Part shown: piece by piece, positions 8,020 through 14,472 of the stretch
Layout: each line of letters opens with the position of its first letter
How positions within the stretch are numbered: position 1 is the first letter of the stretch
Origin: a virus
Taxonomy: Duplodnaviria > Heunggongvirae > Uroviricota > Caudoviricetes
Length of the DNA stretch: 15,693 nt
Direction: 5' to 3' (one strand)
IMG/VR virus record: IMGVR_UViG_2778261355_000012
Position numbers and translations under genes: made by a program
Notes under the pieces: generated by a model
The model's database searches: none
The model's input: only the letters and a program-made list of their open reading frames with translations
What the model was told of the DNA's origin: nothing

Positions 8020-8268
8020 TTATTGTTTCACTGGCTCCCGCATTCTGCGTCTTATTTTCCACAAATATTCGATCATCGCTTCCACCTGCTCACGGTTGGT
8101 TGCGAAAATTTCCCCGGTCAGTGAGCTACGCAGAAAATCATGATGATCCACAAAAAATAACGCATCGGAAGAAAGCAACCGACGATATTTTTTTGCTGTC
8201 GTGGTTTCCAGATCATCAAAACCATGAAGCTTTTTATGTTGCTGAACTTCTTCGAATGTCACTGGCAT
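8020..8268 (-). CDS. hypothetical protein (82 aa)
   Basis: Start overlaps the 3' end of the FinO-like gene by 10 nt; followed by the terminator; no motif recognised. Confidence 0.45.
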   Translation of the reverse strand: MPVTFEEVQQHKKLHGFDDLETTTAKKYRRLLSSDALFFVDHHDFLRSSLTGEIFATNREQVEAMIEYLWKIRRRMREPVKQ

Positions 8269-8789
8269 GTATCCCCCTTTGCTGCCCGGCGCTGGCGCTT
8301 GTGCTTCTCATTCAGCACCATCAGCCGTGTTTCTGCCTCCTGCTGTTCCTGTGGTGTCACTTCCCCACATGGCTGGCCTTTCAGGTCGTAACGTGCGCCA
8401 CCAGCTATCAGGGCGCGGTAATAGCGCGGAGACTGCGCATAGGATGCCAGCGTCGCACGTAATACCCCCGACCCGAATGCCAGCCCCCTGACGGCGATAT
8501 CCTGCATCAGGTCGTCGAATATCCCCACCTTAAGCGGCTTCGGTGCTTTATGGCTGAATAAGTCAGGCCACATCTCAGTGAGGCGGTTAACGCGTCGGCG
8601 GTTTTTGCGCTGCCTTTTGGTCATATGCTGCCACGGTGTCGCCCCTGTGGGCTTCTGCTGTGCGTTCTGATTGCCGGGTATCACTTTATGCGCCGATGTG
8701 GTTTTATCCTGCTCTTGCGCCGCCTGCGTCGTTTTCTGCGGCGTGCCGTAAATGCCTTTCGGCTTCCGGTTAATGGTCAGCGTTGTCAT
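8259..8789 (-). CDS. ProQ/FinO-domain RNA-binding protein
   Basis: Residues ~70-155 (WPDLFSHKAPKPLKVGIFDDLMQDIA...VLRATLASYAQSPRYYRALIAGGARYDLKGQPCGEVTPQEQ) align by eye with the E. coli ProQ N-terminal domain (FPHCF...PLKIGIFQDL...[35 protein letters not shown]); basic, low-complexity N-terminus. Confidence 0.8.
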   Translation of the reverse strand: MTTLTINRKPKGIYGTPQKTTQAAQEQDKTTSAHKVIPGNQNAQQKPTGATPWQHMTKRQRKNRRRVNRLTEMWPDLFSHKAPKPLKVGIFDDLMQDIAVRGLAFGSGVLRATLASYAQSPRYYRALIAGGARYDLKGQPCGEVTPQEQQEAETRLMVLNEKHKRQRRAAKGDTCQ

Positions 8790-9493: not shown

Positions 9494-9540
9494 AGGCTTT
9501 ACCTCACAGCAATAAAATAAAATTTTTGCATTTTAACCCT

Positions 9541-9770
9541 TCACCTGTTCACCTTTTGAGATTTTCCCTTTTTATTCATAATGTTAAGGGGTGAACAGTT
9601 TCACAAAAACTATTCACCAACTGTTCACCACTGTTCACCCTTAAAGCTCAATAAATAATCAAAAAGGTGAACAGTGAATAGTTTGGTGAACAGTTCACAA
9701 ATAACTGTTCACCCTATAATGTACTGATATAAAAGATATTTATCACAGGGTGAACAGTGGTGAACAGTTA
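9541..9770. repeat. iteron field: at least 9 perfect copies of TGTTCACC / GGTGAACA in both orientations plus variants, with an adjacent AT-rich tract; candidate replication origin
   Basis: Read directly: perfect octamers at ~9546, 9590, 9622, 9632, 9666, 9685, 9706, 9749, 9759; AT-rich tataatgtactgatataaaagatatttatc at ~9714-9743. The octamer is the one I recall as the phage P4 alpha-binding type I iteron. Confidence 0.8.
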
Positions 9771-9780
9771 TTCCATAAGT

Positions 9781-12112: not shown

Positions 12113-12308
12113 GGCGCACCCCCTGACGAATACGGGCGGCGAATACCATCACGCAGTCATCAGGAGATTGCTGGCGTGCTTCCTGTTCGCTGGTGGCCTC
12201 AATGGTAATCACGCGCGGTTGTGCCGTGCTCAGGGCGATAAAACGCCAGATGTATTTATTCAGGTTGTACGAGTCCCGCCCTTGCGGGTGTCTGGTATAA
12301 TTTCTCAT
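12105..12308 (-). CDS. hypothetical protein (67 aa), first gene of the replication-side operon
   Basis: Track ORF 12105..13013 trimmed to ATG at 12308 with GAGGT RBS 5 nt upstream; the long N-terminal extension is Ser/Cys-rich and antisense to plus-strand genes. Confidence 0.45.
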   Translation of the reverse strand: MRNYTRHPQGRDSYNLNKYIWRFIALSTAQPRVITIEATSEQEARQQSPDDCVMVFAARIRQGVRHA

Positions 12309-12389
12309 AGCTACCTCGATACTCTCGTTATCGTTGGTGGTTAGACGCCCTGCATGTGTTGCGAGCACTGCGGGGCGTTGCTCTTTTAG

Positions 12390-12435
12390 GTGTATTTCAC
12401 CTTTGCTTTTTAATTTACTCACTGGTGAAATACAC
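12390..12435. promoter_or_regulatory. perfect 12-bp inverted repeat GTGTATTTCACC-N22-GGTGAAATACAC in a divergent promoter region (candidate operator)
   Basis: Read directly; lies in the ~190-bp gap between the minus-strand 67-aa gene start and the plus-strand 59-aa gene start; TATACT -10-like hexamer downstream at ~12466. Confidence 0.5.
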
Positions 12436-12501
12436 TTCAAGCCTTTTTTTATCATTTTTTTTGCGTATACTGACATACACCAATTTTTAGGAGATCCAGA
12501 A

Positions 12502-12681
12502 ATGGCAACTGGTGCAAAGAACGCAAAATCACAAATGACAACTGTCAGAATCCCACATGAAGTAATGGATGATATTGAGCAACTTAAAGAACCTGGCGAA
12601 AGTACCGCTGGTTTTTTAGTTACTGCCGCAAAAGGCGAGATCAAACGCCGCCAGCGTCGCAAGGCCAAAGAGCAGGAGTAA
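12502..12681 (+). CDS. small putative DNA-binding protein (59 aa, possibly ribbon-helix-helix-like)
   Basis: Track ORF 12334..12681 trimmed to ATG at 12502 with AGGAG RBS ~9 nt upstream; MATGAKNAKSQMTTVRIPHEVMDDIEQLKEPGE... then a basic tail; the RHH assignment is a weak guess. Confidence 0.5.
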   Translation: MATGAKNAKSQMTTVRIPHEVMDDIEQLKEPGESTAGFLVTAAKGEIKRRQRRKAKEQE

Positions 12682-12738
12682 CCATCACCAGCGCCGTGGT
12701 GTGAGTAACTACGGCGCATTGCTATGCAGGACAACACA

Positions 12739-12912
12739 ATGACCGATAAAGAATTGACCAAAACATTATCACCGGCACGGAAAAGACGGCGCAGAAAGAT
12801 AGAGCATGAATCAGAAAGATTCGCGCCATGTGCTTTTGCCCTTGAGCAATTCCTTAAAGAGCACAGGAAAAAGCTCTCGTTGCAAACCTTGGAACGAACC
12901 AAATCTGACTGA
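12739..12912 (+). CDS. hypothetical basic protein (57 aa; alternative start 12724)
   Basis: Follows the 59-aa gene on the same strand and is followed by a strong terminator; arginine-rich (ARKRRRRK). Confidence 0.4.
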   Translation: MTDKELTKTLSPARKRRRRKIEHESERFAPCAFALEQFLKEHRKKLSLQTLERTKSD

Positions 12913-12976
12913 TCACATTGCCCACCAGCCAGCAAATCACTATGATGTTCGGGCTTATGTTTAGTGTTTTCCCATT

Positions 12977-13008
12977 GGCGACCGCCCCCGGTCGCCTTTG
13001 TTTTATGT
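12977..13008 (+). terminator. rho-independent terminator after the plus-strand cassette
   Basis: GGCGACCG-cccc-CGGTCGCC perfect 8-bp GC stem followed by TTTGTTTT on the plus strand; prevents read-through antisense into alpA. Confidence 0.7.
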
Positions 13009-13022
13009 GTCATAACTCCCCC

Positions 13023-13307
13023 TTATGCAGCTTTCTTACCGTACGGATTATTGACTTTATCTACAGCAGGTGGGTTACGAACCCACCAAAGCACATCAGA
13101 GAGAAGCCACGCACAGCTATTGCGCCCGAAATGACAACGAGGCGGGAAACGCCCTTCATTTTCCATTTTGAAGCGAGTTGAGCGCGACAGACTGGTAATT
13201 TCCTGGCATTCCTTTTCACGGATACGGCGATCAAATTCAAAACCGTATTCTTCAAGAAGCGCCCGGCGTTGTTCTGGAGTTGGGGGAATGAATGTGGTTT
13301 TTGTCAT
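13023..13307 (-). CDS. alpA: AlpA-family transcriptional regulator (prophage CP4-57-type)
   Basis: Track ORF trimmed to ATG at 13307 with GGAGG RBS; HTH segment EITSLSRSTRFKMENEGRFPP...WLLSDVLWWV matches the AlpA pattern from memory. Confidence 0.8.
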   Translation of the reverse strand: MTKTTFIPPTPEQRRALLEEYGFEFDRRIREKECQEITSLSRSTRFKMENEGRFPPRCHFGRNSCAWLLSDVLWWVRNPPAVDKVNNPYGKKAA

Positions 13308-13389
13308 ATTGCCTCCACTGTATCTATGCTTGCGGAGGCTATTTTGCAATCTTTAATACTGGATTAAAACACAGTAGTAATCATAGAAA

Positions 13390-13422
13390 CATACTGATAA
13401 TGCTTATAAATATATCAGTATG
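13390..13422. promoter_or_regulatory. 10-bp inverted repeat CATACTGATA-N13-TATCAGTATG between the 309-aa gene and alpA
   Basis: Read directly; could be a weak AT-rich terminator for the 309-aa gene or an operator for the alpA promoter. Confidence 0.35.
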
Positions 13423-13444
13423 CTTAGGAGTATATGAGTAAGGC

Positions 13445-14374: not shown

Positions 14375-14472
14375 TGCGCTACCCTCAACGCCCTAAATAC
14401 TTTACGAGCCAGGCGGGTAGGGTTTCCCGCTTTTCGGTTGGCCGACCTATGCCCGTAATATCAGTTTAACCT

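Follow-up and report, generated by a model that had tools for sequence, protein, structure and literature searches.

The DNA analysed here is a stretch of 15,693 nucleotides recorded as a virus of the class Caudoviricetes (IMG/VR record IMGVR_UViG_2778261355_000012), referred to below as the window. The interval between its alpA gene and its replication operon is probably an immunity switch, in which a small ribbon-helix-helix repressor is paired with three operator boxes and the cassette that carries them lies antisense inside a long bridging open reading frame (ORF) resembling eta of P4. This reading is computational. It draws on the boxes and their positions, the co-variation of box and protein, a natural cassette swap, a predicted fold and selection for an open frame, and from these we infer binding, repression, promoter activity, read-through from alpA and protection from Rho. 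The initial annotation had proposed a compact genetic switch with a palindromic operator, or else a toxin-antitoxin-like module of two small genes. The switch was right in substance: predicted divergent promoters have boxes over both, and the core of the boxes tracks the small protein encoded beside them.

The region under study was matched in 1751 of 5426 complete E. coli genomes, at up to six places per genome. Comparisons were made with 71 related loci (numbered with the prefix L), 60 of which encode relatives of a 59-amino-acid protein of the window and come from more than 20 genera of Enterobacterales; the other 11 are further E. coli variants. A perfect 12-bp inverted repeat with 22 nucleotides between its arms was present where the initial annotation had placed it (GTGTATTTCACC at 12390-12401 and GGTGAAATACAC at 12424-12435), and the arms reach 17 nucleotides if two mismatches are allowed. 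Counting perfect inverted repeats with arms of 12 bp or more and no more than 40 nucleotides between them, the window has just two, the second of them in the origin iterons (9704 / 9747); 40 first-order Markov resamplings gave a chance expectation of 0.05 on average. The basic box is 11 bp long, GTG-N5-CAC, and is found three times (O1, O2 and O3 in Table 1). Box-like words with up to two mismatches numbered 7 in the window against 4.4 expected, which is not significant alone.

The upstream region follows a plan shared by nearly all of the 71 loci: leader hairpin, box 1, about 22 nucleotides with a TA...T among them, box 2 directly next to a TTGA of the opposite strand, a stretch rich in T, TATACT, box 3, ribosome-binding site and ATG. 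The boxes start at -32 (box 3), -76 to -78 (box 2) and -99 to -113 (box 1) relative to the ATG of ylcI, the gene for the 59-amino-acid protein. Where the upstream region is intact, nearly all related loci have the boxes at these positions, box 1 in most of them. Within one locus the three boxes carry the same 5-bp core, and the core changes between lineages. All three are direct repeats in most lineages, and box 1 is flipped in the lineage of the window, which contains a palindrome because O1 and O2 stand in opposite orientation. Thus the proposed operator DNA was upheld, and the palindrome as its functional unit was not.

The boxes are placed over two predicted promoters, P_L for the operon of the Icd-like protein and primase and P_R for ylcI. 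The TTGA of P_L is retained in 60-62 of 64 distinct upstream regions, and within its -10 hexamer the T, the A and the last T are retained in 54, 49 and 48 respectively; the -10 hexamer of P_R is TATACT in 49/64 and TATAAT in 4/64. Judged from these predicted positions, the geometry is the usual layout for repression of a divergent operon combined with autoregulation, and the position of O3 over the -10 region and start of P_R suggests the latter. The leader of P_L can form a hairpin with compensatory changes (Table 1), which had no match to an Rfam family in either a gathering-score or a permissive scan and might serve for processing, for protein binding or for the loading of Rho. The gathering-score scan of the whole window found only the int-alpA motif, and the permissive scan of 12200-13100 (E <= 10) gave chance-level matches only. 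There is therefore no C4, CI or isrK RNA in the switch region.

About 14 types of box core correspond one-to-one with residues 11-15 of the adjacent protein. Examples are QMTTV with AAATA, LQVSV with AACAC, KKLEA with TCAGC, QQLNA with AATCG, KRFDV with TCGGA and QKMSA with GCACC. K9, S10, R16 and P18 of the protein and the GTG/CAC ends of the box are near-constant across the classes. In the structural model described below, the variable residues fall on the predicted DNA-reading strand. Taken from the sequences, a dimer of the 59-amino-acid protein most likely binds the three GTG-N5-CAC boxes.

The protein belongs to the YlcI/YnfO family, scoring 64 bits against NCBIfam NF041551 (cut-off 30). 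Its homologues form 179 clusters across Enterobacterales. The AlphaFold2 model (predicted local distance difference test score, pLDDT, 88) consists of an extended segment, a helix at residues 19-28, a G-E-S turn and a second helix at 35-58. It has a strand-helix-helix fold and superposes on known ribbon-helix-helix repressors. In the turn G32-E33-S34, where helix B begins, all of 105 homologues agree in E33 and S34 and almost all in G32. On this model the protein is most likely a ribbon-helix-helix DNA-binding protein. The Pfam DUF3950 threshold was missed by the window protein and reached by K-12 YnfO and by the variant in L073. YlcI homologues were absent from the 50,697 phage records searched, no function is assigned to the PHROG and curated families of the protein, and a literature search gave no functional report for YlcI, YnfO or DUF3950. 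Many E. coli variants (L066, L068-L072) encode a YlcI of 101 residues, in which GEIARRQ is followed by an insert of about 42 residues; a second helix of similar sequence (..VAREELQRRK..) closes the insert, which may be an internal duplication.

The whole cassette lies within a minus-strand frame of 302 codons that begins just beyond the alpA stop codon. This bridging ORF is antisense to a second small plus-strand gene (ORF2), to ylcI, to both predicted promoters and to all three boxes, and its 3′ end is the Icd-like ORF. The initial annotation had treated the palindrome as intergenic; it does lie between an operon start and the plus-strand genes, and it is also inside a long ORF under selection. 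In the 190 nucleotides upstream of ylcI, the three minus-strand frames of 62 loci contain 321, 337 and 23 stop codons in total, and the number of stop-free loci per frame is 0/62, 0/62 and 56/62; comparison with the other five frames served as the control for this promoter region. The same frame is open inside 68 of 68 distinct ylcI genes, where resampling of synonymous codons gave an expectation of about 28. In the window a strong Shine-Dalgarno sequence separates the alpA stop from the start of the long ORF. A stop codon followed by a Shine-Dalgarno sequence and ATG is found after the upstream gene in many genera, and this arrangement points to coupling of the long ORF to alpA.

In the window and in most of the 62 loci, the small first early gene is the in-frame 3′ end of a longer ORF with a predicted internal promoter. 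The Shine-Dalgarno sequence and ATG at the Icd-like position are conserved in related loci. By analogy with P4, the Icd-like ORF is the first gene translated from transcripts of the predicted P_L and the counterpart of kil. In PHROGs, the Icd-like protein matches families that bear the label 'transcriptional repressor' (phrog_6196, E = 6e-42); it is identical in islands with different boxes, and the label may go back to older annotations of P4-type immunity regions.

By these comparisons the minus frame is kept open by selection, and not as a protein sequence, because there is no constraint at the amino-acid level, its register shifts between lineages and its product has no domain. Replacements in this frame within the ORF2 segment were as radical as in non-coding frames, the register relative to conserved motifs differs from lineage to lineage, and no Pfam domain was found in the product. 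The product might still be functional itself, either as a longer form of the Icd-like protein or as what remains of a Bro-N antirepressor, which would be compatible with the switch. A Bro-N domain gene occupies the same zone in L068 and L070, the NCBI Prokaryotic Genome Annotation Pipeline (PGAP) reports 'BRO-N' and 'Icd-like' fragments on the minus strand, and P4 Eta has been classed as a Bro-network protein (PMC10111431). We consider a functional product unlikely, since the observations on domain, replacements and register just given count against it and the translation, judged by eye, is rich in Cys, Ser and Leu, as is typical of non-coding frames.

The open bridging frame accounts for conflicting PGAP annotations, in which 'Icd-like' or 'BRO-N' pseudogene fragments or a 247-amino-acid hypothetical protein replace the small genes. 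Minus-strand pseudogene fragments named 'hypothetical', 'Icd-like' and 'BRO-N' are annotated at 12683-12935 and at the equivalent places in L002, L003, L066 and L067. PGAP annotates the plus-strand 57-amino-acid ORF in L004. For L065, an island at the roxA site of O157:H7, it gives the 247-amino-acid minus-strand ORF and no plus-strand gene. An unannotated ORF of 63 amino acids lies antisense within that ORF in L065 (2302-2493, plus strand); its product has weak similarity to ribbon-helix-helix proteins of the Arc and HicB types. Two GGTGACCAC boxes stand upstream of it. The antisense-cassette design may be general and make use of different ribbon-helix-helix families.

Linkage alone could yield part of the co-variation between protein and box, and for this reason we turned to natural recombinants. 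In L004 the island and its insertion site are those of the window, and its integrase, 309-amino-acid protein, AlpA, ORF2, Icd-like protein and 75-amino-acid protein are 100% identical to those of the window. The two diverge (about 65% identity) only at about 12324-12636, which comprises the boxes, the promoters and codons 1-44 of ylcI, and the flanking DNA is identical; the boxes of the L004 type are GTGAATCGCAC. In L002 and L003, the protein and boxes of the window are kept beside an AlpA that is 44-50% and a primase that is 48-52% identical. L067 and L069 share one AlpA (WP_001206975.1) and differ in box type. It follows from these recombinants that the specificity partner of the boxes is not AlpA, the Icd-like protein, ORF2 or primase.

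The same recombinants bear on the idea that the boxes are bound by some other factor, such as AlpA, a primase or initiator using them as iterons, the Icd-like protein or a protein of the helper phage, and that YlcI does something else. AlpA does activate island genes (PMC6092414), the Icd-like family carries the PHROG label given above, and short repeated boxes can be iterons. We nevertheless regard this as quite improbable. AlpA and the Icd-like protein are unchanged between the window and L004 despite the different boxes, identical boxes stand beside the divergent primases, and the island has a separate iteron array (GGTGAACAG, 9540-9775). A helper protein acting in trans would leave about 14 box types that track the adjacent gene unexplained.

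The initial annotation had allowed that the 302-codon ORF might prove to be the real gene of the region. In its strict form, only this ORF would be real, as PGAP has it in O157:H7, and the plus-strand ORFs would be shadow frames with coinciding third codon positions. One minus-strand frame is indeed stop-free across every ylcI gene, L065 is annotated with the 247-amino-acid minus ORF alone, and codon periodicity by itself cannot separate the three ORFs, whose third positions coincide. Against this, changes within ylcI divide into 2677 synonymous and 1136 non-synonymous in the plus frame, compared with 2314 and 1516 in the minus frame. Substitutions by codon position were 19/16/92 in 18 distinct genes of one specificity class, and ylcI is therefore translated and subject to purifying selection. 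There is a curated family match for YlcI, a confident ribbon-helix-helix model and a conserved Shine-Dalgarno sequence and -10 hexamer, whereas the register of the minus frame shifts between lineages and its product has no Pfam domain. The ORF2 segment also favours the plus frame, as described next. There is very little probability that the long ORF is the only gene. That part of the proviso which concerned the frame was borne out, in that it is selected to stay open, yet the plus-strand genes are under selection at the amino-acid level and the switch stands.

Both small plus-strand ORFs described in the initial annotation are present, and AGGAG precedes the first, in agreement with the good ribosome-binding site reported. 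ORF2 is intact, at 57-59 amino acids, in 12/12 E. coli variants. Because the third codon positions of ylcI, ORF2 and the minus ORF coincide (substitutions in ORF2 are 18/14/24 by class), periodicity cannot separate ORF2 from the minus frame, and we used the conservativeness of replacements instead. The ORF2 frame had the most synonymous changes and the mildest replacements of the five frames tested: the mean BLOSUM62 score was +0.02 in the plus frame and about -1.0 in the minus frame and the three non-coding frames. By this measure ORF2 probably encodes a real small protein. Its homologues form 45 clusters, all from Escherichia or Shigella, with the conserved core ERFAPCAFALEKFLKE. It had no Pfam or NCBIfam match and falls in a PHROG family of unknown function. 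Structure prediction, suggested earlier for both small proteins and informative for YlcI, gave for ORF2 an uninformative helical hairpin (pLDDT 70).

The plus-strand pair might be a type II toxin-antitoxin module, in which a ribbon-helix-helix antitoxin autoregulates through the palindrome and the partner is a small toxin. Two small co-oriented genes do share one terminator. ORF2, however, was not found in any of the 60 loci from outside Escherichia, all of which keep ylcI and the boxes, and in several of these alpA lies about 170 nucleotides beyond ylcI. ORF2 has no toxin domain recognized by Pfam or NCBIfam, the two genes are 57 nucleotides apart with a hairpin between them, and two of the three boxes are on the divergent replication promoter and not on that of the pair. 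The toxin-antitoxin proposal is thus highly improbable. As it is confined to Escherichia and Shigella and has no domain, ORF2 is an accessory gene and not a member of a conserved pair.

The strong terminator reported for the plus-strand genes, and their convergence with alpA, were both confirmed (Table 1). In 17 loci of about nine genera the terminator hairpin and its TTTGTTTT run have been conserved, and changes in the stem compensate for one another. The terminator lies so close to the start of the long ORF that it imposes a conserved N-terminal peptide, ..KTKA..GRQ.., on it. Loci with a terminator just inside the long-ORF start include L007, L008, L012-L016, L027, L036, L038, L042 and L047. 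That the inverted repeat itself is a nucleic-acid hairpin (attenuator, terminator or cruciform) and not a pair of protein sites is scarcely credible: a consensus scan did flag AGGTGTATTTCACCT with its T-run (12388-12402) as terminator-like on the plus strand, but O1 and O2 are direct repeats unable to pair in most lineages, a third copy stands 45 bp away at a promoter, and the arms in the window would enclose the -10 hexamer of P_L.

Table 1. Positions of the switch and of associated features in the window; promoters, hairpins and the repressor assignment are predictions.
Feature	Position	Strand	Remarks
Iteron array, GGTGAACAG / CTGTTCACC	9540-9775	both orientations	about a dozen copies; just downstream of the primase stop
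Icd-like ORF, 67 amino acids	12105-12308	minus	NCBIfam NF033153, E = 2.6e-20; own Shine-Dalgarno sequence GAGG
Bridging ORF, 302 codons	12105-13013	minus	start 9 nucleotides past alpA stop (TAA-GGGGGAGTT-ATG, 13025-13011)
P_L leader hairpin, then conserved motif UCUAACCAC	12345-12378	minus	compensatory changes in 11/15 predicted pairs (22 loci)
Operator box O1, GTGTATTTCAC	12390-12400		exact copy; opposite in orientation to O2 and O3; at about +5 to +15 of predicted P_L
P_L (Icd-like/primase operon), predicted	12412-12440	minus	-35 TTGAAG 12440-12435; 17-nucleotide spacer; -10 TAAATT 12417-12412
Operator box O2, GTGAAATACAC	12425-12435		exact copy; fills P_L spacer; last base is last base of -35 hexamer
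P_R -10 hexamer TATACT, predicted	12466-12471	plus	conserved T-rich tract upstream; no clear -35
Operator box O3, CTGACATACAC	12470-12480		overlaps last two bases of P_R -10 hexamer and predicted start site
ylcI, 59-amino-acid YlcI/YnfO-family protein, predicted ribbon-helix-helix repressor	12502-12681	plus	AGGAG at 12489-12493
Hairpin between plus-strand genes	12691-12717	plus	no T-run after it; outer 5-bp stem kept in E. coli variants
ORF2, small basic protein, 57 amino acids (62 from 12724)	12739-12912	plus
Intrinsic terminator of plus-strand unit	12977-13006	plus	hairpin 12977-12996, then TTTGTTTTAT; ends 5 nucleotides before long-ORF start codon
alpA	13023-13307	minus	Pfam Phage_AlpA, E = 4.8e-12; PGAP annotation; convergent with plus-strand ORFs

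Several observations weigh against the immunity switch or parts of it. The ylcI gene and the boxes are less than 120 bp apart, so that linkage alone would give some co-variation, and the swap localises the partner only to a cassette of about 310 bp, which also encodes an antisense stretch of the long ORF. One dimer would occupy each 11-bp box, and the boxes are 35 and 45 bp apart, unlike the abutting sub-sites of classic ribbon-helix-helix repressors. The consensus scan called neither promoter; P_L has 8/12 matches and P_R lacks a -35 hexamer. Searches with the protein gave no significant ribbon-helix-helix match: Pfam RHH_1 was below threshold (best E = 0.009) in 5/105 members and RHH_5 below cut-off in one, a sequence profile search of the PDB gave no match at E <= 10, and the best Foldseek match of the model had E = 2.5. 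A tblastn search of the 50,697 phage records with the Icd-like protein returned one satellite-like record and no P4, P4 proteins not having been compared directly. The part played by Rho is drawn from the analogy with P4, and the window has no CI or C4 RNA.

In the mechanism that we propose, a dimer of the 59-amino-acid protein bound to O2, in the P_L spacer, and to O1, in the early transcribed region, would shut off the operon for the Icd-like protein and primase, and a dimer bound to O3, over the -10 region and start of its own promoter, would provide autoregulation. When a helper phage turned on alpA, leftward transcription would read through the long ORF, whose translation would shield the transcript from Rho-dependent termination. 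The replication operon would thus be reached without P_L, and the repressor gene would be transcribed antisense.

The closest parallel to this arrangement is the immunity region of P4 (PLL - vis - PLE - nested eta/kil - CI RNA - alpha). In P4, where experiments have established the layout, the 3′ end of eta constitutes kil; eta starts upstream of the constitutive promoter and is coupled to an alpA homologue, and translation of eta from the upstream late promoter prevents termination (PMC10111431, in the latter case summarising Forti et al. 1999). Both regions have an AlpA/Vis-type gene with a coupled junction to a long ORF that holds an internal promoter (coupling and promoter being predictions in the window) and ends, before the primase operon, as a small cell-killing or division-inhibitor ORF. 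The regions differ in that P4 immunity is exerted by CI RNA on seqA/seqC, whereas the window had no C4 or isrK match in the Rfam scans of the window and of 12200-13100 and has instead an antisense protein gene and three operator boxes; its long ORF also lacks a Bro-N domain. The 'Bro zone' of Gram-negative islands occupies the same position, between the int/alpA and replication zones, and holds Bro-network and immunity genes. The immunity described for that zone is RNA-based (CI/seqA homologues), and no YlcI/DUF3950 gene, ribbon-helix-helix gene or operator boxes are mentioned (PMC10111431).

Arc, Mnt (P22 immI), CopG, omega of pSM19035 and AmrZ are likewise small ribbon-helix-helix repressors with an N-terminal beta-strand and short repeated sites. 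Omega binds 7-bp repeats in direct or inverted orientation (PDB entry 2bnw), a freedom comparable to the flipped O1. The window protein differs from these repressors in having no significant sequence similarity to them, in its 11-bp boxes with GTG/CAC ends, 35 and 45 bp apart, and in the location of its gene antisense within another ORF. YlcI and YnfO of K-12, from the cryptic prophages DLP12 and Qin, belong with it to the NF041551 family and likewise have a short strand with an R-x-P motif behind it and a turn of the G-x-S type, but identity is about 20% over 25 residues and ynfO lies beside nohA and ydfO in a lambdoid late region. [quoted passage not shown] Stl repressors, in contrast, are large helix-turn-helix proteins inactivated by a helper-phage protein, whereas the window encodes a predicted ribbon-helix-helix protein of 59 amino acids and induction is thought to act through AlpA.

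The window agrees exactly with part of the chromosome of E. coli ATCC 43886, flanked there by hpt and gcd. RefSeq annotates there, all on the minus strand, genes for integrase, the 309-amino-acid protein, AlpA, the Icd-like protein, two small proteins, primase and single-stranded DNA-binding protein (SSB), followed by a ProQ/FinO protein, major capsid, protease, portal, connector, HNH and terS/terL; the small YlcI/YnfO gene is the sole annotated plus-strand gene of the region. The int, alpA and primase/replication genes, an adjacent origin and the island's own capsid and packaging genes are those that define a capsid-forming Gram-negative phage-inducible chromosomal island. Tail and lysis genes are absent, the element is about 15 kb long, and it occupies a dedicated site. 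By this gene content the window is a phage satellite, namely a phage-inducible chromosomal island of the capsid-forming type, and its insertion site lies between hpt and gcd. Islands at the hpt site have already been named as a subfamily (PMC10111431), and AlpA is the known activator of the cycle of such islands, switching on island genes (PMC6092414). The iteron array downstream of primase is probably the replication origin.

Other features of the island were noted in passing. The int-alpA RNA motif (RF02996) is present at full length at 14391-14457 on the minus strand, scoring 55 bits against a gathering score of 35.8; it sits between the integrase stop and the start of the 309-amino-acid ORF, with alpA one gene beyond. 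Upstream of alpA there is a 20-nucleotide tandem direct repeat (13400-13439) and a 13-nucleotide inverted repeat (13387-13399 / 13413-13425), which are candidate sites for autoactivation by AlpA or for a helper-phage signal. The ProQ/FinO-family RNA-binding protein is encoded at 8259-8789 (minus strand) and could act on the structured leader or on a sense/antisense RNA pair of the switch. L069 (NZ_CP148328.1, 10,790 bp) is a RefSeq 'plasmid' with int, alpA, YlcI, Icd-like and primase genes; it has the look of a satellite that was excised as a circle and then assembled as a replicon.

The global repressor of Gram-negative islands has been called unclear (PMC6092414), later genomic work described only RNA immunity in this zone (PMC10111431), and our literature search found no repressor of these islands. 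The present analysis names a candidate repressor, three operators and the residues that would read them, and thereby makes the question of the repressor testable. The module is common, with matches in roughly one complete E. coli genome out of three. More tentatively, and at somewhat less than even odds, proteins of the YlcI/YnfO type may be the missing master repressors of Gram-negative islands and P4-like satellites as a whole. They would come in at least 14 orthogonal specificities, swapped as cassettes of operator plus reading head and held antisense in a bridging ORF that is translated only for AlpA-driven read-through, and the switch would be flipped by convergent, ribosome-protected transcription and not by inactivation of the repressor. 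If this is true, the many specificities and the clean swap would explain how several satellites live in one cell without cross-repression, and they would constitute a natural set of small orthogonal repressor-operator pairs. For annotation, the lesson is that a regulatory cassette with real genes can sit antisense in a frame that is kept open only for translation.

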